From: an uncultured Bacteroidales bacterium
Lineage (GTDB): Bacteria > Bacteroidota > Bacteroidia > Bacteroidales > Paludibacteraceae
DNA: 64,000 nucleotides
NCBI GenBank assembly: GCA_945921355.1
Contig: CAMEKM010000004.1
Span: 6,305 to 70,304, forward strand
Direction of reading: 5' to 3'
In this document: positions 4,929-55,479 of the stretch, in pieces
How positions within the stretch are numbered: the stretch's first letter is position 1
Layout: every line of letters begins with the position of its first letter
Program-made: the position numbers and the translations under genes
The notes under the pieces: generated by a model
Database searches by the model: none
Seen by the model: the letters and a program-made list of their open reading frames with translations, nothing else
What the model was told of the DNA's origin: nothing

Positions 4929-4940
4929 ACCAATCCAATT

Positions 4941-5047
4941 TGGCTACAAAGGTAGTACTTTTTTCCAATATATACAATATTTTTTAGCAAAAAAATAGTT
5001 TTTTTGTACAACCTACTTTGCTAAATCACAAAATTATTGTACCTTTG
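4941..5047. promoter_or_regulatory. divergent promoter region (amidase operon leftward, manA rightward)
   Basis: Minus-strand -7 box TACCTTTG at 4947-4954. Plus-strand TTTG at 5017-5020 and TACCTTTG at 5040-5047, with a 19-nt spacer and the ATG at 5066. The two -7 regions are mirror images (GGCTACAAAGGTA / TACCTTTGTAGCC). Confidence 0.65.
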
Positions 5048-8480: not shown

Positions 8481-8728
8481 AACATAAATACGCTTCGTTA
8501 CACTCGCTATAAAAATATACAAAAATCTGGTATTATATTTTGTCGTTGCATATAAGAAGCAGCCCGCTGCTTTAGTATGCAAACCAAAATAACAATTTTT
8601 TTGATTATCTACCCATTTTTTGTTTTAGTCACCAATGCGGGACGCATTCTTTGGACTAAAAACAAAAATATGTTTCCTTGATTTTTAATTATTTTTATAG
8701 GCATCAAAGATGCCGTATTTTTGTTATA
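8481..8728 (+). repeat. ~247-bp structured MITE-like element, copy A
   Basis: Terminal inverted repeat AACATAAATACG / CGTATTTTTGTT and three internal hairpins. Homologous to 33151-33397, 49354-49597 and the ends of 48698-49337. Confidence 0.85.
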
Positions 8729-11419: not shown

Positions 11420-11779
11420 TTATTCTTTGTATTTTGATCGTAAAGCAGAAAGTTGTCTTGCTATACCATCAACCTTTTCTTCAATTGTATTATATTGTTC
11501 TTTGGTTATATATCCTAAATCCACAGAGACATCTAATTGGCTGTCCACTTCCATCATAGATGCGTATGCAAATCCAAGGAAGTGTGCTTTTTCTTTGTCA
11601 GACATACGATTCATACCCTCTGCTATATTAGATGTTATAGAGATTACAGCACGACGAATCTGGTCACATAAGGCATATTTTTCTTCTATTGGAAACAGTT
11701 TCAGCAGTTTATACACATCAACCACTAAACTCTTTGCATCTTGATACACATTCAAGTTTTTATACGAATACTTATTCAT
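11420..11779 (-). CDS. four helix bundle protein (23S rRNA intervening-sequence protein family)
   Basis: YKNLNVYQDA...RRAVISITSNIAEG...EVDSQL pattern. The ATG is at 11779; the ORF-track TTG start lies 6 nt upstream. Confidence 0.85.
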   Translation of the reverse strand: MNKYSYKNLNVYQDAKSLVVDVYKLLKLFPIEEKYALCDQIRRAVISITSNIAEGMNRMSDKEKAHFLGFAYASMMEVDSQLDVSVDLGYITKEQYNTIEEKVDGIARQLSALRSKYKE

Positions 11780-11802
11780 AATCAATTATCTATCTCATTA
11801 AA

Positions 11803-11981
11803 CACTCTACACTCTACACCCTACACTCTACACTCTACACCCTACACTCTACACCCTACACTCTACACTCTACACCCTACACTCTACACTCTACACCCTA
11901 CACTCTACGCCCTACACCCTACACCCTACACTCTACGCCCTACACCCTACACTCTACACTCTACACCCTACACCCTACACC
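11803..11981 (+). repeat. (CTACACY)n heptanucleotide tandem array, ~25 units
   Basis: Read directly. The plus strand is almost G-free. The complement carries TAG every 7 nt. Confidence 0.95.
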
Positions 11982-13626
11982 ATTTCATCCACTTCACCCC
12001 AAATTTCCCAATCTCATATAGCAGCGGTTTGCGAACACAAAGGAATTGCCCGTGCTCCACCAATTCGCCGCCAAATTCCATCTTAAAGTCGCGCACACCA
12101 TAAGGCACATTGGGTTTGCCAGCTCCCATAAAATCAAAGAGGGGCAAGTTGTTACTCTTGGCATATTCGATGGCGGCATAGGTGGCCATCACTGATGGAT
12201 ACAGTTCGCGATACTCCTCATCCAGTCCACATACATACCACTCGTATATGGCTTTGTTATTGAGGATTGGGCACATCATTCCGCCAATGACTTTATCTTG
12301 GTACTTTACCAGTAGGTACTTTCCTACTCCACTGCGATAGAAGTGCAAGAAAAACGCTTCGCTCCATAGCGGTGTACGCACCTTGGTGCGATAGAGTCGG
12401 CTGAGTATCTGGTACCAATCGCGTATTTCTTGTTCGGATGTTGCTAATACAATCTCTACCCCATTCTTTAATGCCTTCTTCACTTGACGGACACGTTGCT
12501 CGGTCATGGTGTGCGTAGCAGTGCAATGCACATGAATATCATAGTGTGGCTGGTAGGCGAAGCCGGCATTTTGAAACACCTTCTTCCAACGACTGTAGTC
12601 GTGGAAGTTGCGAGTTTCAATATAGATCGGTAAGCCTACCCCAGCCTTCCCTGAAGGGAAGGGGGATTGTTTCGTAGAATCTAAAGTCCTTCCTTTTAGG
12701 GAAGGATTTAGGATAGGCAGATTTTTCACTGCACTTAGCAGCGCACTCAGCGCTTCGTCGCTGATATCCTCTGCGAGCAATGGTCCGCCGATGATAATCG
12801 CACGGCGAGTGAAGAACTGCTTGATTGCATTGCGCTCACGCGTGATGTAGCCAACTATCACGCCTACCAGCCTATTCCCTGCCCTTCCCTGAAGGGAAGG
12901 GAGTGTAGAGCCCCCCCCTAACCCCTCCCTAAAGGGAAGGGAGTTAATACTAGGTAAGGATTTTAATGTATCTTTTATCTTTTGGATAACAGCATCGGGA
13001 TTGCAGAGCAATTCTTCGTTTTTGAAACGGAATTCTATATAGCCCAAACGATGTAAATGCGCTGTACGTGCCTCATCATATTCCTTCTGTCGAGGATCAT
13101 TATGATATCCACCATCCAACTCTATTATCAAACCCTTATCCAAACAAATAAAATCTACTATATAGCCTAATATAATATGTTGACGACGGAAATGTGCTCC
13201 TAACTTATTTCCCTTCAACATATCCCATAGCACAGACTCTGCCTCTGTGGGATTTTTGCGATTATTCACCGCATTCTCCTTCAACAAACCATACTGTGTA
13301 CTATCCGCCGTATGCGCACCAAAAACCTTCGCAAAACTATTGTATTCTCTTCCCTTTAGGGAGGAGTTAGAGGTAGGCTCTTTTAGGGAAGGATTTAGGA
13401 TAGGCTGATTGAAGGGGTTAGGGGTAGGCTCATAAAAGTCCTTCCCTTTAGGGGAGGATTTAGGAGAGGCTTCCACACCTATGGCAAACGGTGTCATCTC
13501 TTCTGGATTAGCCGCATAGAACTCATACGCCTCCTTGGTTTGGAACCACGTGGCATAGGGCGAGCGGTCAATGAGCGCTTGCCATTGCTGTGGGTCTATT
13601 TCGGGGTATATTAGGAGTTGTGTCAT
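11968..13626 (-). CDS. FemAB/GNAT-like acyltransferase family protein interrupted in frame by repeat elements and a DUF559 nuclease domain
   Basis: The N-terminus (YATWFQTKEAYEFY) and C-terminal two-thirds (EWYVCGLDEEYRELYPS, FDFMGAG, FKMEFGG) look FemAB-like. Residues ~53-253 and ~303-333 are insert-derived. Confidence 0.65.
   Translation of the reverse strand: MTQLLIYPEIDPQQWQALIDRSPYATWFQTKEAYEFYAANPEEMTPFAIGVEASPKSSPKGKDFYEPTPNPFNQPILNPSLKEPTSNSSLKGREYNSFAKVFGAHTADSTQYGLLKENAVNNRKNPTEAESVLWDMLKGNKLGAHFRRQHIILGYIVDFICLDKGLIIELDGGYHNDPRQKEYDEARTAHLHRLGYIEFRFKNEELLCNPDAVIQKIKDTLKSLPSINSLPFREGLGGGSTLPSLQGRAGNRLVGVIVGYITRERNAIKQFFTRRAIIIGGPLLAEDISDEALSALLSAVKNLPILNPSLKGRTLDSTKQSPFPSGKAGVGLPIYIETRNFHDYSRWKKVFQNAGFAYQPHYDIHVHCTATHTMTEQRVRQVKKALKNGVEIVLATSEQEIRDWYQILSRLYRTKVRTPLWSEAFFLHFYRSGVGKYLLVKYQDKVIGGMMCPILNNKAIYEWYVCGLDEEYRELYPSVMATYAAIEYAKSNNLPLFDFMGAGKPNVPYGVRDFKMEFGGELVEHGQFLCVRKPLLYEIGKFGVKWMKWCRV
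12634..12718. repeat. two hairpin elements (CCTTCCCTGAAGGGAAGG type), in frame in the CDS
   Basis: GCCTACCCCAGCCTTCCCTGAAGGGAAGGGGG at 12634-12665 and TCCTTCCTTTTAGGGAAGGATTTAGGATAGGC at 12686-12718. Confidence 0.85.
12863..13470 (-). mobile_element. ~600-bp insertion: a DUF559 (Vsr-like endonuclease) coding segment flanked by inverted clusters of hairpin elements, in frame with the host CDS
   Basis: DUF559 motifs NPTEAESVLWDML, FRRQHIILGYIVDFIC and IIELDGGYH span about 12961-13266. Hairpin clusters lie at 12863-12943 and 13347-13470 in opposite orientations. Confidence 0.6.
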
Positions 13627-15469: not shown

Positions 15470-15501
15470 CAAAGGTAAATATTTTTTCTCTTATATGCAA
15501 A
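15470..15501 (-). promoter_or_regulatory. promoter of the hipB-hipA-(FemAB-like) transcription unit
   Basis: TACCTTTG at 15470-15477 and TTTG at 15498-15501, with a 20-nt spacer. It lies 26 nt upstream of the ATG. Confidence 0.65.
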
Positions 15502-15573
15502 TTTTTCGCATAAAAGATAATATTTTTTCTCTTTTTATCCTTGAGATACCCTCCTTAAGGTCGTTACCTCGCC

Positions 15574-15786
15574 TCTACACCCTACACCCTACACCCTACA
15601 CTCTACACTCTACACTTTACACCCTACACTCTACACTCTACACCCTACACTTTACACCCTACACTCTACACCCTACACTCTACACCCTACGCCCTACACC
15701 CTGCACTCTACACCCTACACTCTACACCCTACACTCTACACTCTACACCCTACACTCTACACCCTACACTCTACACCCTACACCCA
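15574..15786 (+). repeat. (CTACACY)n heptanucleotide tandem array, ~30 units
   Basis: Read directly. Same unit and orientation as 11803-11981. Confidence 0.95.
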
Positions 15787-15805
15787 TAGCCTTTTATTAC
15801 ACTTT

Positions 15806-17095
15806 TCAATCTTTACGTTGCAATAGCCAATCTGCTGCTAAAACGCAATGAATTATTTTTCCATTCACTTCAATATCTCGTTCTTCGCCACGCATCATGA
15901 TAAGTGTCATGTTATTACAATTTGTTAATTTTGAACCTTTTAGCAAACCATTAATTTCTCTGTTATACAATTTAGTGGATGGATCTATAAAGTCATATGT
16001 CACTTGTATCAGTTCGCGCACATGCGAGGATTCTACCACTACAAAATCCACTTCAAAATCCTGCACCTTACGCAGATAATAAAGTTGTTCGTACTCCGAA
16101 TGCAGACGTCGCAGCAGTTCTACTGCTACCACATTCTCCAAACGCAAGCCAAAACTTTCTGTCAACAAAGCATTTTCATGTTGCGAGATAAAAGCATTAT
16201 CCACGGCATATAATTTGCGCCCCGAATTACGCTCACTGCTCTTGAGCGAAAACTTAGGAATAAGACAGAGCAAATATGCATTTTGTAGATAGGTGATATA
16301 GTTCTTTACAGTATGCACCGACTTGATGCCCAACTCTTCCGCAATATCGTTGAATGATTTTTCTTGGCAAAACCAATCTAGCAAGCGATTAGCCAAGTCC
16401 GACAATGTTTGCTGATAGCGAACCTTATATCGATGACATATATCCTTTTTGATAATCGCCTCACGCAATGAGAATAGATAGTTACGTTTGTTAATCTCAG
16501 GCGAGGTTATTAATTCGGGGAAACCACCAGACATAATATACTCGTCCAATGCATGATCGCGAAGCCCATATGCTAAGGTAGTAGCAGTATTTATATCCAC
16601 CCCCTTGATAGCACAATATTCTGCAAATGAAAATGGATATAGTTCTATTTGATGATAGCGCCCTGTCAGATGCGTACTTAGTTCTCCACTAAGTAAATTC
16701 GCATTACTACCCGTAAGTATCAATTTAACCCCTTGTCGAAGCAATCTATTCACAAACAAGTACCAACCACTGACATTTTGTACCTCATCTAGGAATAGAT
16801 GTGTGAATGCCCCATAGATAGCATAGAGTTCTTGCAATATATCATCTAAATCTTCTGCAGACACTCGTTGTAAGCGTTCGTCATCGAAATTTACATAAGC
16901 GAAATGTACGCCACTTTGCAAGAGAACTTTTTGGCACAATGTAGATTTTCCACTACGTCGTACGCCAATTACTATCTGAGCCAGTTTGCTATTAAGTTGA
17001 ATCTCCTGTTCTTCTTTTCGGGTACATAACGTGCCCAAATCAATTGTTTCCAACTCTGCTTTTTGGTTCGATAAGATTCGTTTTAAGTCCTTCAT
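15806..17095 (-). CDS. AAA family ATPase (AAA_14 + DUF4143 type)
   Basis: Walker A GVRRSGKST and Walker B LFLDEVQ. It is a paralogue of 10047-11192. Confidence 0.85.
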   Translation of the reverse strand: MKDLKRILSNQKAELETIDLGTLCTRKEEQEIQLNSKLAQIVIGVRRSGKSTLCQKVLLQSGVHFAYVNFDDERLQRVSAEDLDDILQELYAIYGAFTHLFLDEVQNVSGWYLFVNRLLRQGVKLILTGSNANLLSGELSTHLTGRYHQIELYPFSFAEYCAIKGVDINTATTLAYGLRDHALDEYIMSGGFPELITSPEINKRNYLFSLREAIIKKDICHRYKVRYQQTLSDLANRLLDWFCQEKSFNDIAEELGIKSVHTVKNYITYLQNAYLLCLIPKFSLKSSERNSGRKLYAVDNAFISQHENALLTESFGLRLENVVAVELLRRLHSEYEQLYYLRKVQDFEVDFVVVESSHVRELIQVTYDFIDPSTKLYNREINGLLKGSKLTNCNNMTLIMMRGEERDIEVNGKIIHCVLAADWLLQRKD

Positions 17096-17153: not shown

Positions 17154-17250
17154 CTAAACTGCACAAAAATAGAAATTTCCATTGTCTAAACTGCACAAAA
17201 ATAGAAATTTTCCTTGTCTAAACTGCACAAAAATAGAAATTTTCTTGAAA
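17154..17250. repeat. 3 tandem copies of a 32-bp unit (CTAAACTGCACAAAAATAGAAATTTTCCTTGT)
   Basis: Read directly. Each unit contains TATTTTTG, a -7-box match, on the minus strand. Confidence 0.9.
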
Positions 17251-32155: not shown

Positions 32156-32239
32156 ATTTTCTTGTAATTTTTTTCTAGTGATCCTAGTGATCCTATTGCT
32201 ACTCGGGCTACTAACCCCCTATTCGTCGCCATTTGGCGA

Positions 32240-32271
32240 CAAAGGTACAACTTTTTTCTGACATACGCAAA
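32240..32271 (-). promoter_or_regulatory. promoter of the gmd transcription unit
   Basis: TACCTTTG at 32240-32247 and TTTG at 32268-32271, with a 20-nt spacer. Confidence 0.6.
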
Positions 32272-32337
32272 TATTTTAGGCGAAAGGTGACAGATTATAG
32301 GTTAAAGGCAATGTTTTATCTTTAGAAGCCATAACAT

Positions 32338-32763: not shown

Positions 32764-33150
32764 TCCTTATCGCAAAAACCGCTATATGTACTATGCTCTT
32801 ACTATGTGATTAGTATGTTGTTACTATCTCATTCATAGCACTTGCTAATACCTTCTTTCCCCAATCTCTATCACACTCACTCCCATTCTCATCATCAACA
32901 CTGTGATTGCCTTTAGGACGGTTTGATCGCGTTCTTTATTATTTCTGCTGCAAAGATACTGCTATCTCCAACTACACTGTGGGTTTCCGCCACTTTCTGC
33001 CCGTTTCAGCCCGAATAAAGTAGTTTCTGTCGGTTTCTGCTGTAAAAATACAACATCAATATTGACATTAATGTTTTTTTAATATTAACCTATATTTTTA
33101 ATTATTTTTATAGGCACCAAGTGCCGTATTTTTGTTTCAATTTTTTCTTT

Positions 33151-33397
33151 AACATAAATACGCTCGCTTCGCTTGCTACAAAAATATACAAAAATCATGA
33201 ATCATATTTTGTTTTTGCATATAAGAAGCAGCCCGCTGCTTAAGTATGCAAACCAAAATAACAATTTTCTTGATTATCTACCCATTTTTTTTGTTTTAGT
33301 CACCAATGCGGGACGCATTCATCTGACTAAAAACAAAAAGATGTTTCATCGATTTTTAACTATTTTTATAGGCATCTGTGATGCCGTATTTTTGTTA
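33151..33397 (+). repeat. ~247-bp structured MITE-like element, copy B (preceded by an orphan right end at 33094-33137)
   Basis: Aligns end to end with 8481-8728. Confidence 0.85.
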
Positions 33398-33429
33398 TAA
33401 AAAAACAAAAAAAGGCGGTTACCCGCCTT
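33398..33429 (-). terminator. intrinsic terminator downstream of hipA-2
   Basis: On the minus strand, AAGGCGG-GTAA-CCGCCTT is followed by a T-run (TTTTTTTGTTTTTTT). Confidence 0.6.
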
Positions 33430-33596
33430 AAATCCCCGCCTCTACACTCTACGCCCTACACTCTACACCAGCAGCTCTGCTGCTTGCCTCTAAACTCTAA
33501 ACAGTAGCTCGCCCCGCGAGCGTTCACTAAACACTAAACCCTAAACAGTAGCGCCTCTGGCGCGTCCTCTAAACACCAGCAACTCCGCTGCCCCGC

Positions 33597-34694
33597 CTAT
33601 AGCGTCTGCGTCAGAGTGCGTAGTTCACGAATAATCTCACGTGCTCTCGTGGGCAAGATGCGAATACTCTCAGCAGCAGCTATCATATCCGCCTCCGAAG
33701 GCTTACCATGCCCCATTACCGAAGTGGCATGTTCACCATTATACCCTTGTACACAGCGGGTTAGATCGTATGCAGGAGCCAGATGCCAGCCATCATCCAG
33801 GTGGACAAAAGAGAAGTTCTTGGCATGATCATCCTTGTTGCCTATCAACACATTGAAGACCATTCGTCTAAACATCTGCTCCACCTCCGCGGGACTCTGC
33901 GTGATATAACCCGTCAAAGCCAATAGCACCTTATAATCCGTTTTGGGCGGATAGATATTCTCGTTGAGCAATGCAGCTGCCGTAGCCATATGCAGAGGTT
34001 GCCCATCTGAAGATATATCAAAGCGTTTGCTTGCAAAATAGCTATCACTGAGCAATTTAAAGTCGGGTACCTCAATTCCACATCGGCGTGCTAATTGATT
34101 GCAATGATACTCTTGCACGCCCATATCCATGGGGTCGTAGGTATGTCGGAACTTCACCAGCCATTGTCCATCCTCATCGTGATACAGGCATTTCGGACGG
34201 CAGCCACCGCTATTACCGCTGCTCAGATACAAGGTATCGGCACCTTCTGTGGTTTTCTCAGCCAACACATCGAGTGCCATCTGCTGCAGGGTATTGAGTT
34301 CGGGCAATAGGAACTGCTCAGCAGGCATCATCTCTGGCTCATAACGCAGTGCTCCCATACCAGACGAGCCCACGATAGCCAAGCGCTGAAGCGGCGTGAG
34401 GGATAGTTCGTCGATCCCATGCTGGCGAAGCATACGATTGAGCAAGAAGCGTCCATATCCATCTGGTAGGCTATCCTCAAAGATACCAAAATTACCATAG
34501 AAAGGTGTAGGTTCTGCAATGAATAGATCCGCACGCAAAGGGATTTGCAGTGGCGAAATAGAGAAGCCATGCGCCAGCCACTCGGGGGCATATTCAAAGG
34601 TGCAACGCGTGTTGTCGGGCGTGCGAGAGATAGTCCCTACCCGATGGTCACGGTAGAACACCTGCAACTTATTTACGGAATGTATTGCGTCCAT
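33597..34694 (-). CDS. hipA: type II toxin-antitoxin system HipA family toxin (short form)
   Basis: Kinase motif IGNKDDHAKNFSF and a HipA N-terminal coupling region. Confidence 0.85.
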   Translation of the reverse strand: MDAIHSVNKLQVFYRDHRVGTISRTPDNTRCTFEYAPEWLAHGFSISPLQIPLRADLFIAEPTPFYGNFGIFEDSLPDGYGRFLLNRMLRQHGIDELSLTPLQRLAIVGSSGMGALRYEPEMMPAEQFLLPELNTLQQMALDVLAEKTTEGADTLYLSSGNSGGCRPKCLYHDEDGQWLVKFRHTYDPMDMGVQEYHCNQLARRCGIEVPDFKLLSDSYFASKRFDISSDGQPLHMATAAALLNENIYPPKTDYKVLLALTGYITQSPAEVEQMFRRMVFNVLIGNKDDHAKNFSFVHLDDGWHLAPAYDLTRCVQGYNGEHATSVMGHGKPSEADMIAAAESIRILPTRAREIIRELRTLTQTL

Positions 34695-35019
34695 GCTTGC
34701 GACCTTTGTTGTTTTGGATGATTTCTAATTCTGCCATGGTACGGTAGATAGGTTCTGCCATTACGGCTTGGAGCGGTTGGCTATAGCCCAATGCTTTGGC
34801 AATGGCCACATATTGACGGAGCGATAAGGTGGCTTTCTGCTCAAACTTGGCGATAGTAGCCACAGGCACACCGCTCATCATCGACAGTGCCTCTCGCGAC
34901 AGCCCTCGCTCCAAACGTCGTGCTTTGAGTTGCTCAGCCAATAGGCGCATAATATCTTCGGTTGATTCCGACTCAAATTGATAAAGCAAATTACTACTAT
35001 TGTATTCAATCTCTGCCAT
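34669..35019 (-). CDS. helix-turn-helix transcriptional regulator, HipB-like antitoxin
   Basis: HTH (LSREALSMMSGVPVATIAKFEQ). It overlaps hipA-2 by 26 nt. Confidence 0.78.
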   Translation of the reverse strand: MAEIEYNSSNLLYQFESESTEDIMRLLAEQLKARRLERGLSREALSMMSGVPVATIAKFEQKATLSLRQYVAIAKALGYSQPLQAVMAEPIYRTMAELEIIQNNKGRKHGRNTFRK

Positions 35020-35089: not shown

Positions 35090-35121
35090 TATAATCACAA
35101 AAAAACCGACGAATATTTTCA

Positions 35122-35232
35122 TTTTTGGTTTTAGTCACCAATGCGGGACGCATTCCTTTTGACTAAAAGCAAAAACATATTCCCTAGATTTTTAATTATT
35201 TTTATAGGCACATCGTGCCGTATTTTTGTTAT
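35122..35232 (+). repeat. right half of the MITE-like element, copy C
   Basis: Contains hairpin 2 (TTTAGTCACCAATGCGGGACGCATTC..GACTAAA), hairpin 3 (GGCACATCGTGCC) and the right end CGTATTTTTGTT. Confidence 0.8.
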
Positions 35233-35233
35233 T

Positions 35234-35263
35234 AAAAAACAAAAAAAGGCGGTCACCCGCCTT
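35234..35263 (-). terminator. intrinsic terminator downstream of 35442-36302
   Basis: On the minus strand, AAGGCGG-GTGA-CCGCCTT is followed by a T-run. It is a duplicate of the 33398-33429 module. Confidence 0.6.
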
Positions 35264-35441
35264 AAATCCCCGCCTCTACACTCTACGCCCTACACTCTAC
35301 ACCAGCAGCTCTGCTGCTTGCCTCTAAGCTCTAAACTGTAGGCGAAGCCGTCCTCTAAACCCTAAACAGTAGCACCCATGGCGCGTTCTCTAAACAGCGC
35401 TGAAAGCGCGCTCATTATTCAAAGGAGTTAAAGAGCATGGG

Positions 35442-39621: not shown

Positions 39622-40311
39622 TTATATCAATGAATAGTGTTTTAACATTTTTTGTATATTATCTATTGAATTGAACATTAGAATGTCAATCATAGATAAT
39701 CCTGAAATAAACTCATTTCCATATTGTGGATATGGGACTACATTAGATTGTACAAAGTACAAATTTATATTCTCTTTTTCAAAAATACTTTTGTCATACA
39801 ATTCTTGACCACCTATAGCATTGTAATAGGTATCAGCATCTAACAATTTACAGATTTCTAAAATTTTGTCTTGGCCTTTTAAGGTGTTGTCTTTATCAAT
39901 ATCTGAAGACATTATTATCTTAGTCTGGATTCCCAAATACTGGCAGACATGTTTAATACTATTCGCAATGAAATCTGCTAAATTATTTGACTGATAGGAA
40001 AATATCTTATCCAATAATGCCATTACATCATTATAGTATGGCGCCTTATGATATGCCATATGTATAGTTTTGCGTAATTTAGTAAAATCATCCGCAATCG
40101 TAATCTCATTGATTAGTTTATTTTGACTTGCTCCATTCAGCGCAATCGTAAACATTTGCTTATCATTATTCACTAAGATATTATTCCTATTTATCCAGCC
40201 TTTTTTAATGTAATTCACATCATCATATACCACATACGTATCAACAGCTGCCATCAACTGCCAATAACCGATATACGGCATAAAATATGGTTGCATGATT
40301 CCTAATTTCAT
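39622..40311 (-). CDS. WbqC family protein
   Basis: The start MKLGIMQPYFMPYIGYWQL is characteristic of the WbqC family. Confidence 0.75.
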   Translation of the reverse strand: MKLGIMQPYFMPYIGYWQLMAAVDTYVVYDDVNYIKKGWINRNNILVNNDKQMFTIALNGASQNKLINEITIADDFTKLRKTIHMAYHKAPYYNDVMALLDKIFSYQSNNLADFIANSIKHVCQYLGIQTKIIMSSDIDKDNTLKGQDKILEICKLLDADTYYNAIGGQELYDKSIFEKENINLYFVQSNVVPYPQYGNEFISGLSMIDILMFNSIDNIQKMLKHYSLI

Positions 40312-40420
40312 CGTTTAACGTTTTAATGAGTTAGTGTTTAGTGATTCGCTCACTCGTTAATTCCTTCATTCGATCATTCGATAATTCGCTCATTCGTTAA
40401 CTCCTTCACTCGGTCATTAG
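40312..40420 (+). repeat. octamer-periodic tract (TCNTTMAN)n, left copy R1 of the direct repeat bracketing the island
   Basis: AATGAGTTAGTGTTTAGTGATTCGCTCACTCGTTAATTCC... aligns with 50090-50210. Confidence 0.8.
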
Positions 40421-40468
40421 TCGGTGATGAGGAGGTGGTTGATTGGTAGCAAGAAGGTTGTAAAGTTA

Positions 40469-42052: not shown

Positions 42053-42127
42053 TATTTCTTCGTTAAATCATTCACTTTCTTCTCTCGCTTCTCTCTCGGT
42101 GATGAGTCGGTAAAGCTTTATCAATTA

Positions 42128-45074: not shown

Positions 45075-45184
45075 ATAAATTAAGTTTAAATGTTGATTTT
45101 GTTTTAATTATTATCCACCCCCGAATCTCTCCCATAAGCGAGTCGTGTTTGTCTCTCGCTCTTCTCTCGGTCATCTCTCGGTGG

Positions 45185-46378
45185 TTACTTATTTGCTTTC
45201 ATCAGTCGTTTTGTTTCACGCAGCTCTTTTTGCAGGAGTTCCATGCGTTCCTTCAGTTGCTCTTGCGTCGGAAGCATGTCCTTGATGCGTACATTATTAT
45301 ATGTTGCCACTCCCATCGGAGTGCTGATGCCACGGAACGACCATTGTACATCGGCTTTATTCATATCCGAACAAATGAGCAAGCCTATCGTCGGATTATC
45401 ATCCTCTGCTTTCAACAAGTCATCTACTGCATTGACGTAAAAATTCAGTTTTCCGGCAAACTCCGGTTCAAACGCTTTGGCTTTCAGTTCGCACACTATA
45501 TAGCAACGCAAACGGATATGATAGAAAAGCAAATCAATCTTGCGTGTAGTATCTCCGGCAATCAGTTCTTTCTGTCTTCCTATAAACGCAAAGCCGGTTC
45601 CGAGTTCCAACAAAAGATCCGTTACACTTTTGCTCAATGCTTCTTCTAACTCCTGCTCATCGTAAATCTCATGCTTCACGGTTGCAAAGCCAAAGTCATA
45701 ATTCTCCTTGAGTACTTCTTGCGCCAATTTGCTCTGCAATGCGGGCATGTGCTCGGCGAAGTTATTGAGAATCTTTCCTTGATGCTCATATAGATTAGCT
45801 TTGATGCAGTTCACCAGCGCCGCACGACTCATACCCTGCTCTATCGTCTTTCCTACATAGAAGAGCGCTTCATCAACTGATTTGCATTTGGAAATAATAG
45901 CAATATGATGTCCCCATGGAACGTATGCAAAAGAAGACGGAAATTCTCCAACGGGTTGCTGGAGTTTTTGAGAATCAATTTCTGCAACAGTTTGTTGCAG
46001 TTTTGAACTTAAAATTTCTCCAACAACTTGTTGGAGTTTTGTATCCTCCTGATAATAAAACAGATACCACTGTTTCATATACCATAGATTCGTAGTCGAG
46101 AAACCTTCTGCATTCGGGAACTCACGCTGGAGATCAAGGCTCACTTGCTCCACCACACCTGCGCCCCAACGCTCTTCGGCTTTCTTTTGCACTAAATCGC
46201 GTCCCAGTTCCCAATTGAAGAGCAACTTCTCTGCATTTACACGCACAGAAGCCTTCACTTGCGCCGAACGATACCGATGTTTCAACTCGGCAATCCATTC
46301 CGCGTAATCCGTATCAATGCGTATGTCGTGAGATTTCACGATACGCGGTTGCTTTGATATTTCATTTTCTTCTATCAT
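45185..46378 (-). CDS. YhcG/DUF1016 family PD-(D/E)xK nuclease-like protein
   Basis: STTNLWYMKQWY, VPWGHH and IDLLFYHIRLRCYIVCELK motifs. An internal 3x palindromic repeat lies at 45941-46040. Confidence 0.8.
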   Translation of the reverse strand: MIEENEISKQPRIVKSHDIRIDTDYAEWIAELKHRYRSAQVKASVRVNAEKLLFNWELGRDLVQKKAEERWGAGVVEQVSLDLQREFPNAEGFSTTNLWYMKQWYLFYYQEDTKLQQVVGEILSSKLQQTVAEIDSQKLQQPVGEFPSSFAYVPWGHHIAIISKCKSVDEALFYVGKTIEQGMSRAALVNCIKANLYEHQGKILNNFAEHMPALQSKLAQEVLKENYDFGFATVKHEIYDEQELEEALSKSVTDLLLELGTGFAFIGRQKELIAGDTTRKIDLLFYHIRLRCYIVCELKAKAFEPEFAGKLNFYVNAVDDLLKAEDDNPTIGLLICSDMNKADVQWSFRGISTPMGVATYNNVRIKDMLPTQEQLKERMELLQKELRETKRLMKANK

Positions 46379-46467
46379 TTTCTAAATTTGTCTCCCGGTC
46401 ATCTCCCGCTCATCGGTCGGTGAATATTTCTAAATGTTTACCTCTATCCTGACCAAGACAACAGAAG

Positions 46468-47952: not shown

Positions 47953-47970
47953 TATCTCTCAATTTTGCCG

Positions 47971-48002
47971 CAAAGATACGGATTTTTTTTGATTTATGCA
48001 AG
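47971..48002 (-). promoter_or_regulatory. promoter upstream of fic
   Basis: TATCTTTG at 47971-47978 and a -33-like TTGC about 20 nt upstream. I see no other canonical promoter motif between here and 42352. Confidence 0.5.
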
Positions 48003-48087
48003 TGTTTTGCGGATTTTTTTAGATTAATACTCTTCTTGTAAGGATTTTTTTATTACGATTCGTATTTTTTCTCGCTCATATTATTCA

Positions 48088-48146
48088 ATTAATTTCTCGC
48101 TCTTCCCTCGGTCATCTCCCGCTCATCGGTTGGTGATGAGTCGGTA
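48088..48146 (+). repeat. island junction repeat J5 (longest copy)
   Basis: TCTCGCTCTTCCCTCGGTCATCTCCCGCTCATCGGTTGGTGATGAGTCGGTAAA. Partial copies lie at 40405-40440, 42085-42116, 45150-45186 and 46390-46425. Confidence 0.8.
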
Positions 48147-48158
48147 AATAAAGTGTTT

Positions 48159-48650
48159 CTATTCCTTATCTACAATTATTGCTTCCACAAATTGTAATTG
48201 CAATAACGCTTTGTCCGTATGAAACGATACTTGATTAAACAGCACATGCGTTTTCAGTTGCACTACGGCAGCTTCTGCACTCAACTCCGCATTCTCATAC
48301 AAGCTGATGGTGGCATACAAGTTATCATTCGCTACTGGACCAAGCACAATATCATAATCATGCAACGGAGCAAAGCGACGATTGGCAACCACAAAATCCA
48401 ACCACTCCTTGGTCGCTCCGTTGTACTCCATTATCTTCAATACACCATCATTCAATAGATTATCATCCACCTCATATACAGACACCACTGCATTGCCTTC
48501 TCCAGCACGGTCGCGGCGAATACGCGCCCAACGGGCTGCCTGGTCAAAATCAACTGTGGTATAAAAGCCCTTGCCATAATCGGTATTGGGCCTACCTTGG
48601 CGAAGACTGGGTTTCCTGATCGTTACTGTTGAACCATGATATAGTTTCAT
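48159..48650 (-). CDS. DUF3990 domain-containing protein
   Basis: The pattern MKLYHGS....DYGKGFYTT..FDQAARWA is typical of DUF3990. Confidence 0.7.
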   Translation of the reverse strand: MKLYHGSTVTIRKPSLRQGRPNTDYGKGFYTTVDFDQAARWARIRRDRAGEGNAVVSVYEVDDNLLNDGVLKIMEYNGATKEWLDFVVANRRFAPLHDYDIVLGPVANDNLYATISLYENAELSAEAAVVQLKTHVLFNQVSFHTDKALLQLQFVEAIIVDKE

Positions 48651-48697: not shown

Positions 48698-49337
48698 AAC
48701 ATAAATACGCTGCGCTAGCGCTTGCTACAAAAATATACAAAAATCTTGTTATTCTATTTTGTTTTTGCATATAAGAAGCAGTTACTGCTTAAGTATGCAA
48801 AACAAAATTATTTTTGGTTGATATAATTAGGAACAATTTTGTATTTCAAAGGCACTTCTCCAAAGTTAATCAATATACCTAGTGGTAAGTTGGTTGCTTT
48901 TAGATAGTTTAATAGTTGTGCCGTATGCTCAGTCCTTAATTTTTCAACAGATTTGAGTTCTACAACTATATTGTCATAGCATACTAAATCAGCTTTGTAT
49001 GTTCGATCAAGTAAATGTCCTTTATAAGTGATTGTAATTAATTTCTCTGTTTCAAAAGGAATTCCACGTAACCCTAATTCAACATTCAACGCATCATGGT
49101 ACACCAACTCCAAAAAGCCTCGTCCTAAATGGTTCTGTACTTCCATAGCAGCACCAATGATATCAAAAACTTCTTGCTGGAATTGTATGTCGTTAGATTT
49201 GTTCATATCAGTTTCATTATTACATCTTTTGTTCTTGCTCACCAATGCAGTGTACTGCATTCAGTTGAGCAAGAGCAAAAAAAGTTTCTTGATTTTTAAT
49301 TATTTTTATAGGCATCAGAGATGCCGTATTTTTGTTT
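48698..49337 (+). mobile_element. MITE-like element copy D carrying a GxxExxY gene as cargo
   Basis: The left part (48698-48810) and right part (49215-49337) match the two halves of the empty copy at 49354-49597. The cargo sits between hairpin 1 and hairpin 2. Confidence 0.75.
48808..49206 (-). CDS. GxxExxY protein (PD-(D/E)xK-like; 23S rRNA IVS-protein-type family)
   Basis: IIGAAMEVQNHLGRGFLELVYHDAL and VVELK...LLNYLKATNLPLGILINF motifs. The start is set at MNKSND, because the longer ORF reads through the element's hairpin. Confidence 0.85.
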   Translation of the reverse strand: MNKSNDIQFQQEVFDIIGAAMEVQNHLGRGFLELVYHDALNVELGLRGIPFETEKLITITYKGHLLDRTYKADLVCYDNIVVELKSVEKLRTEHTAQLLNYLKATNLPLGILINFGEVPLKYKIVPNYINQK

Positions 49338-49353
49338 AAGTATTATTCTTTCT

Positions 49354-49597
49354 AACATAAATACGCTGCGCTGGCGCTTGCTACAAAAATATACAAAAAT
49401 CTTGTTATTCTATTTTGTTTTTGCACATAAGAAGCAGTATACTGCTTAAGTATGCAAAACAAAATTATTTTTTCCAATATTTCTTTTGTTCTTGCTCACC
49501 AATGCAACTTGGTTGCATTCATTTGAGCAAAGACAAAAGGATTATCTCCATGATTTTTAATTATTTATATAGGGCTTTAAAGCCCGTATTTTTGTTT
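49354..49597 (+). repeat. ~244-bp structured MITE-like element, copy E (empty)
   Basis: Same architecture as copies A and B, but with compensatory changes in all three stems. Confidence 0.85.
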
Positions 49598-49601
49598 CAA
49601 A

Positions 49602-50018
49602 TTACTTTTTTCTATTGTTAATAAATATATCTATATCGTGCAAAATCATGTCCTTACCTTGTGTATGAAGCATATCAAAGCCTTTTACCAGATACTCATC
49701 GACCCCATAACGACGGAAGAGAGCGTATGCCTCTAGTGAGGTCATATCATGTTTTTTTGCATAATTTTCAGTACAAAAAGTTAAAAATACAATCACATTA
49801 TTCGATACGATATGCCCGCTAGAGAACCTGCTTTGTTCCAATAAGCGATAAAGTGATTCTGTATCCAGATACCACCACTTGGCATTTTCATCGTACAACT
49901 TTGCATAAAAGGGCGAGTCATAAATATAGCCCAACGCAGCTCTCACGGGGATATGCTTGCGCTGCGAGACAAGCAACGCCAATTGTGATATTTTTAATGG
50001 AATAATAGATGCACTCAT
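49602..50018 (-). CDS. DUF3791 domain-containing protein
   Basis: 138 aa. This is a family-level guess based on size, sequence pattern and pairing with DUF3990. Confidence 0.55.
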   Translation of the reverse strand: MSASIIPLKISQLALLVSQRKHIPVRAALGYIYDSPFYAKLYDENAKWWYLDTESLYRLLEQSRFSSGHIVSNNVIVFLTFCTENYAKKHDMTSLEAYALFRRYGVDEYLVKGFDMLHTQGKDMILHDIDIFINNRKK

Positions 50019-50089: not shown

Positions 50090-50210
50090 ATCGATTTAAT
50101 GTTTAATGAGTTAACGTTTAGTGATTCGTTCACTCCCTAATTCGTTCACTCTTTCAATCGTTAATTCGTTAACTCCTTAACTCCTTCATGCGTTCATTCC
50201 TTAACTCCTT
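50090..50210 (+). repeat. octamer-periodic tract (TCNTTMAN)n, right copy R2 of the direct repeat bracketing the island
   Basis: AATGAGTTAACGTTTAGTGATTCGTTCACTCCCTAATTCG... aligns with 40312-40420. Confidence 0.8.
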
Positions 50211-51360
50211 AATTCCTTACACACTCTATCACTCGTGTTACGTCCTCTTCGCTCAACGCATGGTGCATTGGTAAGCAAATCACCTGATTAGCAATCTTAT
50301 TCGCCATAGGCAAATTTACTGGGTTGGCACTTGGAATATCCTTATACGGATCAAAGTCCGTAATCAAAGGATAGAAATAGCGACGACCTAACACATTATT
50401 TGCCTTCATCTTCTCATATAACGCATCACGGGAGATGCCGTATTGTTCTTCGTCCACAAAAATGGGGAAATAACTAAAATTTAAGCGATGAGGCGAAAGG
50501 TTATTAGGCGATGAGGCAAGAGTATCAATCATTGGTTGGAAGATTTTTATTCCTTTCACATCTTGCAATGCCTCTACATATTGTTTAGCAACCTTTTTGC
50601 GTGCCTCGATTGCAGCATCAACTTGGCGGAGATTAAGCAGACCATATGCCGCACGCATCTCGTCCATCTTGCTATTGATACCTGGAGCCACAACAGTAGT
50701 TTCACCACGGAAACCGAAGTTCTTCAGGTTGTCCACATGGTACTTCATCTCTGCGGAATGGCAAATTAATGCACCGCCCTCAATCGTATTATACACTTTG
50801 GTAGCATGGAAACTCAAAGTGGAGATGTCGCCTGCATTTAATACCGATTGTCCGTTCTCAATGACGCCAAAAGCGTGCGCGGCGTCGTAGATTACTTTCA
50901 GATTATGCTTTTTAGCAATCGCATCAATCTCGGCTGTCTTGCATGGTTTACCATAGCAATGCACTGGCATGATAGCTACCGTATTGGGCGTAATGGCTGC
51001 CTCAATCTTCGCAGGATCAATGCCACAGGTTTCTTCCTCGATGTCCACAAAGACGGGCTTTAAGCCGTTCCACCAGATTGAGTGGCTAGTTGCTACAAAC
51101 GAATATGGTGTAGTAATCACCTCTCCCTCGTGAATGCCCAGTGCTTGGAAAGCCGTAATGAGCGGCAAAGTACCATTAGTAAATAGCGACAGAAACTCTA
51201 CTCCAAGATACTTGGCGAGTGCCTGCTCCAATTGTTGATGGAACTGACCATTATTTGTAATCCATTTACTATCCCATATCTGCTGCAGATATAAGGTAAA
51301 CTCCTCCAATGGTGGGAGTAATGGGGAAGTGACAGTGATTTGTGATTTATTTTCACTCAT
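50209..51360 (-). CDS. DegT/DnrJ/EryC1/StrS family aminotransferase
   Basis: PLLPPLEEF, DAAHAFG and SFHATKVYNTIEGG (PLP Lys) motifs. An in-frame repeat insert is encoded at 50483-50520. Confidence 0.9.
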   Translation of the reverse strand: MSENKSQITVTSPLLPPLEEFTLYLQQIWDSKWITNNGQFHQQLEQALAKYLGVEFLSLFTNGTLPLITAFQALGIHEGEVITTPYSFVATSHSIWWNGLKPVFVDIEEETCGIDPAKIEAAITPNTVAIMPVHCYGKPCKTAEIDAIAKKHNLKVIYDAAHAFGVIENGQSVLNAGDISTLSFHATKVYNTIEGGALICHSAEMKYHVDNLKNFGFRGETTVVAPGINSKMDEMRAAYGLLNLRQVDAAIEARKKVAKQYVEALQDVKGIKIFQPMIDTLASSPNNLSPHRLNFSYFPIFVDEEQYGISRDALYEKMKANNVLGRRYFYPLITDFDPYKDIPSANPVNLPMANKIANQVICLPMHHALSEEDVTRVIECVRN

Positions 51361-52651: not shown

Positions 52652-52819
52652 ATGTTTATCTGTTTTTATCTCCTTGCCCTAAAGGGCAGAAATCTTCAGT
52701 AAATCTTATTTTAATCTTATGATATTGTCTTAGTAGTTTGGATTGATGACGATAGACTTTGTCTATCTTATGTATTAATGTCTTATCACTCGCGCTCAAG
52801 CAAGGATCATAGCCAATGG

Positions 52820-53090
52820 CTAAATTGATTGTTTGGTTAAGTTCAATTTGACCAAACGAATACCATGGCTAAAATCATACGTATTGAAATTAATCAATAC
52901 CCCATTTTCCTTACCTGACAATTTCATATACGTTTTCAACTGCTTAAAATGGATTGGCAATATATCCTCTACTCACTAACTCATAAGCCAACGCCTTGTG
53001 ATACACCGACTCCAACAAGCCAGGACCGAGGGTGTTATATACCTCCATCGCCGCACCACGGATATGGTATGATAGTTCATGAGGGGCCAT
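52820..53090 (-). pseudogene. GxxExxY-family gene remnant (N-terminal 48 codons, stop, then an out-of-register C-terminal piece)
   Basis: Translates to MAPHELSYHIRGAAMEVYNTLGPGLLESVYHKALAYEL...* and later ...VLINFNTYDFSHGIRLVKL. Confidence 0.6.
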
Positions 53091-55385: not shown

Positions 55386-55412
55386 CTAGCGATGTTCTCT
55401 CGAAATCGGCTG

Positions 55413-55444
55413 CAAAGGTACTGCTTTTTTTTGAAGTGACCAAA
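55413..55444 (-). promoter_or_regulatory. promoter of tRNA-Glu
   Basis: TACCTTTG at 55413-55420 and TTTG at 55441-55444, with a 20-nt spacer. Confidence 0.6.
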
Positions 55445-55479
55445 TATTTTCAAAAAAAAATGTAAAAAAGGTGCGTTTT

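Follow-up and report, generated by a model that had tools for sequence, protein, structure and literature searches.

Repeat Copies and Their Basic Unit

The window, by which we mean the whole stretch of 64,000 nt analysed here, is a polysaccharide-biosynthesis region. A first-pass annotation had described in it a MITE-like family of ~247-bp elements with inverted ends and three hairpins, and when the copies were compared with the window using blastn every location that it had listed was recovered, with E-values (1e-12 to 1e-128) that exclude chance as an explanation. Copy A lies at 8481-8728, copy B, which is 89.6% identical to A, at 33151-33397, and copy C (~76% identity) at 49354-49597. Both ends of the longer copy D (48698-49337) match the two halves of the short copies. 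A copy of the right half lies at 35120-35232, and 44 nt of a right end lie at 33094-33136. The short copies are 244-248 bp in length, they have the ends AACATAAATACG and CGTATTTTTGTT and the three hairpins that had been described, and their whole halves are inverted homologues of each other. A genuine repeat family with inverted ends is supported. The features are listed in Table 1.

Table 1. Repeat units and the associated gene in the window
Feature	Position	Strand	Parts and context	Evidence
Doublet A, L-type unit	8481..8594	-	Outer end AACATAAATACG 8481-8492; iterons 8507-8527; long hairpin 8536-8591	nhmmer unit model, E 2e-24; covariance model, 102 bits
Doublet A, R-type unit	8613..8728	+	Long hairpin 8616-8668; iterons GATTTTTAATTATTTTTATAG 8680-8700; short GC hairpin 8700-8714; outer end CGTATTTTTGTT 8714-8725	Unit model; covariance model; RNA fold z -2.9
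Truncated R-type unit	33089..33137	+	Retains the last iteron, the short hairpin (GGCAC/GTGCC) and the outer end; doublet B is 13 nt away	blastn; unit model
Doublet B, L-type unit	33151..33262	-		Unit model; covariance model
Doublet B, R-type unit	33284..33397	+	Outer end abuts the canonical terminator of hipA	Unit model; covariance model
Singlet R-type unit	35113..35232	+	Long hairpin 35122-35175	Unit model; covariance model; RNA fold z -3.7
Element D, L-type unit	48698..48810	-	Follows the ORF stop codon directly; 48 nt separate its outer end from the DUF3990 start codon, which it faces	Unit model; covariance model
GxxExxY protein gene (132 aa)	48808..49206	-	PD-(D/E)XK motif D73...E83-x-K85	PF13366, E 1.6e-40; TIGR04256, E 1.7e-41
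Element D, R-type unit	49222..49337	+	Upstream of the ORF and antisense to it	Unit model; covariance model, 129 bits (best match)
Doublet C, L-type unit	49354..49467	-	97.5% identity to the L unit of D	blastn; unit model; covariance model
Doublet C, R-type unit	49481..49597	+	Short hairpin GGGCT/AGCCC; outer end 6 nt from the DUF3791 stop codon	Unit model; covariance model; RNA fold z -5.8

The basic element is not the 247-bp copy, as had been assumed, and the real unit is ~115 nt long. The left and right halves hit identical locations, on opposite strands, and can be aligned as a single unit, such that what had been called hairpins 1 and 2 is one hairpin seen in two inverted, homologous half-elements, and the 247-bp element is a head-to-head (inverted) doublet of a structured repeat unit. 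Units are found as singlets, doublets and arrays in the intergenic DNA of gut Paludibacteraceae, with singlets being common in other genomes, and the supposed partial copy at 35122-35232, although correctly located, is itself a complete singlet. Each unit, in the orientation that we use as a convention, runs from a long bulged hairpin through two A-rich 8-mers (iterons) and a short GC hairpin to the outer end CGTATTTWTGTT, within which there is a third copy of the 8-mer. All three iterons change together between clades (AAAAATA versus AAGAATA). The left-hand counterpart of hairpin 3 is poorly formed. Both reported versions of hairpin 2 exist but their carriers had been misassigned, as AGTC...GACT belongs to A, B and the half copy at 35122 and GCTC...GAGC to D and C, and the single-stranded motifs that had been termed invariant vary slightly (AACTATT in B, TTATTTATATAG in C).

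Covariation and Structure of the Units

The compensatory base changes noted previously between a few copies are borne out in much larger alignments. With 51 units the covariation score is 0.335, compared to 0.137 for shuffles and at most 0.089 for slid partners, and both sides have changed in 16 of the 23 pairs. With 140 distinct units from more than 20 genomes, aligned with the covariance model, the corresponding values are 0.296, 0.114 and at most 0.069, with both sides changed in 20 of the 23 pairs (neither pair count is corrected for the tree). Because pairing is preserved through compensatory changes, selection acts on structure. The units and the doublet also fold better than shuffled sequences (z -2.9 to -5.8), and the RNA of a doublet closes into a long terminal stem (z -5.1). 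On one strand of the long hairpin G.T pairs outnumber A.C pairs by 25 to 6 in the model-based alignment, and this excess, which is weak evidence given that the sequences are related, suggests a single-stranded form of that strand and does not discriminate between RNA and DNA; the same count on a first MAFFT alignment was uninformative owing to a register shift in the AT stem. The unit is no known Rfam RNA, since the only hit to the window at gathering score in Rfam 15 is tRNA-Glu, and permissive scans of the copies gave no match below E 0.05 and none near gathering score. The units are a new covarying structured element that is absent from Rfam.

The GxxExxY Gene and Its Flanking Repeats

The first-pass annotation had regarded D as a copy bearing cargo, and D does carry an ORF, but this ORF is not incidental, as it encodes a GxxExxY protein (PF13366/TIGR04256, PDDEXK_3) whose gene is consistently associated with the units. 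A longer version of the ORF, reaching 49260, probably extends into a repeat unit and is not real. The residues D73, E83 and K85 are invariant in 30 homologues, and the AlphaFold2 model of the protein (pLDDT 79) was matched by Foldseek best to Cas4 SSO0001, with Cas4, lambda exonuclease and RecE as the closest folds (TM ~0.5). These matches come from fold comparison, as a sequence search of the PDB gave none, and according to the model the protein has a PD-(D/E)XK nuclease fold with intact catalytic residues. PADLOC returned a marginal, partial match (E 4e-4). The family is large, with ~15,500 clusters at 50% identity, and it is annotated in thousands of bacterial genomes without a known function. 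A full-text literature search found no paper treating it, and in the 2012 survey of PD-(D/E)XK proteins PDDEXK_3 was entered as 'Unknown' with 'multiple transfers' (PMC3424549). The genes are rare on plasmids, with only eight records, and plasmid carriage was rejected as the cause of their spread. The hairpin-2 pattern of the units was absent from the viral contigs that were scanned.

Repeat units lie on both sides of every examined homologue with at least 80% identity (the window and the related loci L002, L031, L034, L036-L048 and L051-L062), and with homologues of 67-79% identity there are partial unit ends nearby that point towards the ORF. The geometry is not fixed: the ORF of L051 is not enclosed by a doublet but comes after a unit's outer end. 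Wherever examined, there is a unit immediately next to the ORF stop codon, and the junction upstream (5') of the ORF varies. Among distant homologues (45-63% identity), 16 of 49 are bracketed by inverted repeats at E<1e-5 versus 2 of 27 control ORFs, leaving about two thirds of them without a flanking inverted repeat by what is a crude test. Distant homologues in Bacteroides, Treponema, Prevotella and environmental bacteria have other inverted repeats around them that are likewise built of iterons, with arms of iterated motifs such as three copies of CACGAATT or of CACTAATT. Isolate genomes provide examples. In B. finegoldii, a 30-nt inverted repeat made of CAGAGGAC repeats exactly fills the gaps to radA and to the next gene; in T. 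saccharophilum the inverted repeat is 16 nt long and contains CACGGATT; and the homologue of P. nigrescens is also surrounded by bracketing repeats. The similarity of the arms correlates with the identity of the proteins (Spearman 0.36, permutation p ~0.008), that is, arms and protein diverge together.

Site Occupancy and Relative Age

Insertion polymorphism, which the first-pass annotation had proposed as a check, is seen, as orthologous sites are occupied or empty in relatives and the number of units per site varies. The site between DUF3791 and DUF3990 exists in three states, with a doublet only (L023), with the ORF between units (L002 and L036), and with an ORF element plus a doublet (the window and L034). 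There are also reciprocal empty sites, in that position 7641/7653 of the window is empty where L037-L042 have elements, and 4680-4697 of L037 is empty where the window has doublet A. The same protein is encoded at two different positions, between GSIII and SpoU (three assemblies) and between SpoU and GDPD (three further assemblies). Most of the evidence as a whole is from metagenome assemblies, where repeats may be collapsed or joined wrongly.

The ORF is younger than its surroundings. At the GSIII/SpoU/GDPD sites it differs at 0-3 of 402 nt between genomes whose flanking genes are 80-90% identical, and at the DUF3791/DUF3990 site the ORF of the window is ~97% identical to those of L002, L034 and L036 compared to 88-92% for the adjacent genes, synonymous codon differences amounting to ~6% for the ORF as against 15-23% for its neighbours. 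Overall, ORF identity between genomes is 97-100%, versus 80-92% for adjacent genes. The ORF is also better conserved than its own flanking units, and the two may have partly separate histories.

Interpretation and Alternatives

We propose that the units and the GxxExxY gene form a selfish system of a nuclease and its cognate repeat, REPIN/RAYT-like or homing-like, in which the units are the repeat recognised by the nuclease and copy D is the coding member, and we hold this reading with about as much doubt as conviction. The nuclease, probably as an oligomer, would bind the helically phased iterons of a unit and cut at or near the hairpins once these are extruded or single-stranded. Recombinational repair could then copy the ORF into or beside arrays of units, and sometimes copy units too, in a manner resembling homing or the action of RAYT on REPINs, and homologous recombination between units may expand, shrink and reshuffle the arrays. 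The elements lie just after stop codons and would be read through by host transcription in one polarity, which would keep their hairpins and orientation under selection. We infer both the binding of iterons and cutting of units by this nuclease and its role as the mover.

A host-level role in RNA or transcription would also produce the fixed polarity of the doublets and the way in which outer ends hug stop and start codons, and it is a live rival for these features. The units would then be a cis-acting module of the host that had spread by recombination, perhaps an intergenic insulator in which a terminator-like short hairpin and U-run are combined with a long hairpin that is stabilising or a target of RNase processing, and possibly with a promoter directed outwards. 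The GxxExxY gene, on this view, would be a selfish passenger unrelated to the units that tends to land in AT-rich intergenic islands of this kind. We consider this unlikely, although it deserves the most serious attention of the alternatives. The placement of the units agrees with it, as singlets are mostly co-oriented with the neighbouring genes and, in non-redundant contexts, the outer end of an L-type unit is directed at the 5' end of a co-oriented ORF in 12 of 12 cases, and 29 R-type outer ends are directed at the stop codon (3' end) of the gene next to them, many of them only 6-40 nt away. Doublets are always R-first and L-last relative to host transcription. A pattern scan for a short hairpin with a T-run called four terminator-like sites in the region versus 1.3 expected, at R-type and some L-type ends, but in the units the stem is only 5-6 bp and the short U-run has interruptions, true terminators nearby do not look like this, and in doublets it is the better terminator-like unit, R, that is antisense to host transcription. 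Similarly, TATTTTTG at the outer end fits the -7 box of Bacteroidetes (TAnnTTTG), a perfect box being present in 75 of 145 units and TTTG, the motif of the -33 box, upstream in many, but the spacing of TTTG to TAnnTTTG is mostly 18-19 nt and is N20 in only 13 of the 145, whereas the window's own promoter-like sites peak sharply at 20. An outward promoter at the outer end is kept only as a minor possibility. The terminal stem of doublet RNA and the G.T excess are also in accord with a cis-acting module, which nevertheless leaves unexplained the units that flank every close GxxExxY homologue, the joint divergence of arms and protein across phyla and the concerted change of the three iterons.

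That the copies are classical MITEs, i.e., non-autonomous IS derivatives whose 12-nt terminal inverted repeats are recognised by a DDE transposase that moves them in trans, seems to us very unlikely. The earlier term 'MITE-like' is apt to the extent that the elements are short and intergenic, have inverted ends, are present in several copies per genome and occupy sites that are empty in some relatives. The classical picture itself fails. No target-site duplication, one of the signs proposed for such insertions, was seen at any inspected unit end, in the window or in related copies, the flanks being A/T runs that partly extend the inverted repeat, and no sharp insertion scar was resolved in comparisons of filled and empty sites, for which the genomes are only 75-90% identical. 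In ~400 kb (the window plus related loci) these ends were not seen to enclose any ORF large enough for a transposase, the sole bounded ORF being that of the 132-aa predicted nuclease, and an IS whose ends match was not seen either. Half-elements that stand alone, or in arrays with conserved spacers of 11-20 nt, are unlike the products of cut-and-paste transposition. There is also no sign that doublets arose by internal deletion, because their centres lack significant similarity to the ends of the ORF (z below 2).

A family of free-standing small RNA genes, encoding a trans-acting sRNA with its own terminator, would account for the covariation and for the conserved hairpin, U-rich single-stranded linker and terminator-like 3' hairpin, and yet we judge it highly improbable, as there is no conserved sequence upstream of the long hairpin, and thus no shared promoter, the units form inverted doublets and arrays and come to within 6-40 nt of coding sequences, no Rfam match was obtained, and the association with the nuclease ORF is left unexplained. 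We give almost no credence to an invertible promoter (a phase-variation switch flipped by a site-specific recombinase, as in Bacteroides polysaccharide loci), which the nature of the region, the ~250-bp length, the bounding inverted repeats and the promoter-like boxes inside might suggest, since the independent contexts and assemblies that were examined all show the same polarity and never a flipped version, copies are located within operons and between toxin or defence genes rather than at the heads of capsule operons, and singlets and ORF-bearing copies do not fit. An integron attC site, suggested by the AAC...GTT ends, was rejected, as these ends do not fit the attC consensus RYYYAAC/GTTRRRY, the size is 247 bp and the ORF is central.

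Returning to the nuclease-plus-repeat reading, a broader version of it may be put forward tentatively, and we think it somewhat less probable than not. GxxExxY/PDDEXK_3 proteins could serve as the enzymes of a class of minimal selfish elements that spans phyla and has so far gone unrecognised, each element being a cassette of ~0.5 kb with a PD-(D/E)XK nuclease of ~130 aa between inverted arms built from three iterons in helical phase. The arms would have grown, in some lineages (Paludibacteraceae among them), into hairpin-bearing 115-nt units that proliferate alone as singlets and doublets, like REPINs around RAYTs, and the nuclease would recognise its own arms and spread them by break-induced copying rather than by transposase chemistry. 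If the genes are indeed cassettes bounded by cognate iteron-bearing repeats, the family gains a testable hypothesis for its activity, namely the sequence- or structure-specific cleavage of its own arms, and the design of a repeat with a dedicated protein, so far known from REP/RAYT, would have a second class of enzyme. Should the system prove ordinary, the units are a lineage-specific repeat only, which still accounts for several intergenic regions of the window. The units sit in operons and in defence/toxin gene pairs of gut Bacteroidales and so may affect transcription, and they probably fragment metagenome assemblies.

Comparison with Known Systems

Homing endonuclease genes, which are free-standing or intron-borne, include a PD-(D/E)XK class (I-Ssp6803I). 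Like them, the ORF described here is present or absent at the same site (L023 lacks it; L002, L034, L036 and the window have it) and is less diverged than its flanks, as after horizontal re-invasion. Unlike them, it is not within an intron or intein, its presumed recognition sequence is a dispersed repeat, and its 5' junction varies while its stop codon abuts a unit. The IS200/IS605 elements are small, have subterminal hairpins that are recognised on one strand and generate no target duplication; the elements here share the hairpins, the size and the lack of duplication but have neither an HUH transposase nor TnpB, and their ends are inverted repeats with iterons. The Correia/NEMIS, RUP and ERIC MITEs form strong RNA hairpins when co-transcribed and can carry terminator- or promoter-like sequences. 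They resemble the present elements in being intergenic, 100-300 bp long and inverted at the ends, and differ in that here no target duplication or parent DDE IS was found, half-units stand alone, and the coding relative is a predicted nuclease.

The intervening sequences of 23S rRNA that carry a small ORF, such as that of Coxiella burnetii with S23p, are also selfish and consist, as PMC4990558 describes them, of ~0.4-0.6 kb with complementary ends enclosing one small ORF; the elements here are not in rRNA, and their ORF is of PD-(D/E)XK type as opposed to the four-helix bundle of S23p.

Another close parallel is with the REP/BIME/REPIN-RAYT framework (reviewed, together with bacterial MITEs in general, in PMC3733652). 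In both cases the palindromic units are spread through the spaces between genes, for the most part a short way past the 3' end of a gene, and they stand singly, as inverted doublets or in clusters. A single small protein gene has units on either side of it, target duplication is lacking, transcription probably reads through, and more than one repeat family can exist side by side, each paired with a protein of its own. RAYT, however, is an HUH/Y1 transposase and the flanked gene here encodes a 132-aa predicted PD-(D/E)XK (GxxExxY) nuclease, and here the ORF appears to move more recently than the units. A REP is a palindrome of 20-40 nt tagged by GTAG (or CGTC), whereas the unit here is ~115 nt with two hairpins and three iterons. 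A TAG before the short hairpin is invariant in the units and is preceded by G or A, such that RTAG is present in all of them and GTAG is not conserved.

Architecture and Distribution of the Repeat Units

We propose that the repeats represent a structured partner of a nuclease gene of the GxxExxY family (PF13366/TIGR04256), as this is the best-supported reading of the data. Reading the sequence and searching the copies against the full window recovered the repeat family described in the first-pass annotation at its coordinates (Table). The window has a G+C content of 41%, and almost every gene neighboring the copies is encoded on the minus strand. The 247-bp element is a real repeat but consists of two units of ~115 nt with their long hairpins facing each other. 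The short-copy profile matches many sites in related genomes twice, with its left half and, on the opposite strand, with its right half, and the reverse-complemented left halves align as homologs of the right halves, so that the building block is the ~115-nt unit. What had been taken for a partial copy, at 35122, is one whole unit.

From inside to outside, a unit comprises a long hairpin, the linker GATTTTTRWWTATTTTTRTAG, a short GC hairpin, and the end CGTATTTWTGTT. The long hairpin runs from an outer A/T stem through a GC-containing stem of 5 bp (GCNCA/TGNGC) and an asymmetric internal loop to an inner stem of 6-8 bp. There are two subfamilies, R (CACCAATGC-type, with a good short hairpin and the end TATTTTTG) and L (ACTTAAGCAG-type, with a poor short hairpin and the end TATTTATG). 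On the other strand, end and linker carry an 8-mer three times, as ACAAAAATAC, TAYAAAAATAA, and TTAAAAATC, with about one helical turn between the latter two. A scan for the exact pattern, with each species represented by a single genome, yielded 36 loci, 33 of them in metagenome-assembled genomes of Paludibacteraceae or other Bacteroidales from the animal gut; the other three, in unrelated phyla, are probably chance matches. Searched with the unit profile, these loci and the window gave 67 units, as singlets, doublets, and arrays, together with four further ORF-bearing copies, and a covariance model found 145 units in 61 sources, mostly metagenome assemblies, in which such repeats are prone to collapse and mis-joins.

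Table. Features of the window, with strand and supporting evidence.
Feature	Position	Strand	Evidence or remark
Short copy A	8481-8728		Copies compared with window
Short copy B	33151-33397		Copies compared with window
Short copy C	49354-49597		Copies compared with window
Long copy D	48698-49337		First ~118 nt and last ~126 nt match the two halves of the short copies
Right-half copy	~35113-35232		Copies compared with window
Right end, 44 nt	33094-33137		Copies compared with window
GxxExxY ORF (cargo of D)	48808-49206	-	PF13366, E 1.6e-40; TIGR04256, E 1.7e-41
Decayed second GxxExxY gene, different clade	~52810-53085	-	~63% identical over 35 aa
Promoter-like blocks (examples)	4938-4988, 32231-32281, 47962-48012, 55404-55454
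hipBA (hipA/hipB toxin-antitoxin pair)	33597-35019	-
DUF3990 gene	48159-48650	-	PADLOC PDC-M13, E 1e-49
DUF3791 gene	49602-50018	-	PADLOC PDC-M13, E 4e-21
Two similar 14/21-nt tandem arrays	11704-12065, 15493-15875		13-14 register-shifted copies each; 3.6 kb apart
DUF559 (Vsr-like endonuclease) and FemAB/Acetyltransf_6 domains in one 552-aa ORF	11968-13626	-
D7 short repeats, rich in TCTC(T/C)CGGT / GGTGATGAG	40403-40439, 42078-42114, 45149-45196, 46388-46424, 48101-48148
D2, 8-nt-period repeats	40302-40426, 50090-50214
D17, 32-nt tandem repeat (x3)	17154-17249

Conserved Structure and a Possible Role in Transcription

The hairpins keep their pairing through compensatory change, as had been noticed from the window alone. 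RNAalifold finds such changes in 10 of the 13 pairs of the long hairpin. When covariation was tested on a 23-pair structure that we specified, 88% of cells in the first alignment were paired and the score was 0.335, versus 0.137 for column shuffles (0 of 500 reached 0.335) and at most 0.089 for slid partners. For 140 distinct units in the model alignment, pairing was 89%, both sides had changed in 20 of the 23 pairs, and the score was 0.296 versus 0.114 for shuffles and at most 0.069 for slid partners, figures that are not probabilities because the structure itself guided the alignment and the sequences share ancestry; the independent MAFFT alignment gave the same outcome. One covarying pair, for example, occurs as UA (82), AU (27), and CG (13). 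For single units the folding z values range from −2.9 to −5.8, with a weaker value for the L unit of copy A, and the whole doublet in the direction of the host transcript has a z of −5.1, with a long terminal stem formed by the A-rich and U-rich iteron segments. An Rfam scan of the window and the copies returned no family matching the repeat. The excess of G.T (25) over A.C (6) on the inside-to-outside strand of the long hairpin hints weakly that one particular strand folds while single-stranded, be it RNA or DNA.

A role of the units in RNA or transcription is a live rival to the nuclease-partner reading, or an additional layer of it. Non-redundant contexts gave small counts that are not wholly independent of one another. 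In them, all 12 L outer ends point toward the 5′ end of an ORF in the same orientation, 29 R outer ends point toward a neighboring gene's 3′ end (stop codon), many from only 6-40 nt away, and R singlets lie ahead of a gene in the same orientation in 14 cases; with respect to host transcription the doublet therefore always has R (antisense) first and L (sense) last. This fixed polarity, the proximity to stop codons, the short hairpin with its T-run, which a pattern scan finds terminator-like, and a perfect −7 box at the end of half of the units keep such a role in play, although the −33/−7 spacing is mostly off the 20 nt that the genome prefers. That preference is seen in a conserved promoter-like block (TTTG, 20 nt, TAnnTTTG, usually TACCTTTG) upstream of minus-strand genes at many intergenic sites, with exactly N20 in 11 of 22 such sites outside units.

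Association With a Nuclease Gene

In the first set of loci each of the five ORF copies sits between units, and homologs at 81-99% identity, found by exact look-up or in metagenomes, have units on both sides in every case, often within arrays. In the 81% clade the unit is a variant whose three 8-mers all have AAGAATA in place of AAAAATA, and at 67-79% identity partial unit ends adjoin the ORF. Usually an R unit (antisense) lies upstream and an L unit (sense) begins at the stop codon of the ORF. The geometry varies, as the ORF of one related locus (L051) comes after the outer end of an L unit and the unit ends point inward in the 67-79% clade.

Among homologs at 45-63% identity, inverted repeats (E < 1e-5) bracket 16 of 49 testable ORFs versus 2 of 27 control ORFs on the same contigs. 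These arms show no sequence relationship to the Paludibacteraceae units but are alike in design, with a short motif (CACGAATT, CACTAATT, or CCGAATTT) present two to four times, ~10 nt apart. Three isolate sequences agree with this iterated inverted-arm design: Bacteroides finegoldii, in which the gaps on either side of the ORF, toward radA and toward the next gene, are filled exactly by a 30-nt inverted repeat built from CAGAGGAC repeats; Treponema saccharophilum, with a 16-nt inverted repeat containing CACGGATT; and Prevotella nigrescens, with bracketing repeats and a tandem array of 120-nt period. The mean 6-mer Jaccard similarity of the arms climbs with protein identity (0.005, 0.08, 0.17, and 0.47; Spearman 0.36, permutation p ~0.008), which argues that arms and protein have been inherited and have diverged together. 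Tandem arrays of arm-type motifs adjoin or flank the GxxExxY ORF (L120, 1513-2928, 118-nt period; L133, 1911-2274; 120-nt period in P. nigrescens), and formation of cognate-repeat arrays is thus not limited to Paludibacteraceae. In five distant cassettes (L074, L093, L095, L102, L113) the stretch from the upstream arm to the start codon contains TGGCAYG-N4-WTGMT, which resembles a sigma-54 −24/−12 promoter.

The GxxExxY family comprises 15,550 clusters at 50% identity (E ≤ 1e-3), and no function is assigned to it in the searchable literature. D73, E83, and K85 are invariant in 30 homologs, and by fold the AlphaFold2 model (pLDDT 79) comes nearest to Cas4 SSO0001 and nucleases of the lambda-exonuclease/RecE type, with TM values that are modest (~0.5). 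Whether the nuclease acts on the units is, in our judgment, close to an even call. In the decayed second gene, 48 N-terminal codons are followed by a stop, and the C-terminal portion (GVLINFN...) is out of frame with them; the gene has a promoter-like site of its own (TTTG-N20-TACCTTTG) and no surrounding units.

Mobility and Classification

Insertion polymorphism is evident between relatives, with occupied and empty sites in both directions, in comparisons that were made across different species. The window has an 11-nt junction (7641/7653) where L037-L042 carry ~1 kb made up of ORF element and doublets, and at the place of doublet A and ~20 extra bases in the window, L037 has 18 nt. One GxxExxY protein (P0064) has its gene in the GSIII-SpoU interval of three assemblies and in the SpoU-GDPD interval of three others; its ORF shows 0-3 differences per 402 nt, versus 80-90% identity for three flanking genes, and the near-identical tract begins at the outer end of the upstream unit. 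Between the DUF3791 and DUF3990 genes, a match to the PADLOC candidate defense system PDC-M13, the repeat island D plus C (~900 bp) is found in the window and four related species. Here the window ORF shares ~97% identity with those of L002, L034, and L036, versus 88-92% for the two adjacent genes (synonymous codon differences ~6% versus 15-23%), and doublet C is 97-98% identical to its L034 counterpart. The site exists as a doublet only (L023), as units with the ORF (L002, L036), and as an ORF element with a doublet (window, L034). Some differences between loci are simple recombination between units, such as L039, which equals L037 minus one unit-to-unit interval. From 3509 on, L041 loses synteny with the otherwise 98%-identical L037-L040 and L042, precisely where the L unit after the ORF has its outer end, and the different genes downstream suggest rearrangement at unit ends.

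In overall architecture the ORF and its units resemble the REPIN/RAYT system (PMC3733652), and the ORF behaves much like a homing endonuclease gene. The enzyme is not a HUH transposase, however, and the unit is not a GTAG palindrome of 20-40 nt. Nor is it a classical MITE, as the unit ends examined in the window and related loci have no target-site duplication and neither a parent IS nor a deletion origin was found there; doublet centers do not resemble the ORF ends. We therefore assign the element to neither family.

Neighboring Features

Direct repeats of 126 nt, with 97% identity to each other (33382-33507 and 35216-35341), lie on either side of the hipBA pair, each consisting of an R-unit outer end and a canonical terminator (GGCGGTnACCCGCC followed by a T-run, minus strand). 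In L035 the same hipBA adjoins R units with extra genes in between, and units may thus serve as recombination points for small cassettes. The 14/21-nt arrays bound an interval with the DUF559-FemAB-like ORF and a second hipA gene, and an AAA_14/DUF4143 ATPase gene adjoins. At the corresponding place L037 and L038 have a FemAB-like gene of ~330 aa, so the 552-aa ORF may be an endonuclease insertion or fusion. The D7 repeats occupy several intergenic gaps of the minus-strand gene row and may be another hairpin or terminator family.
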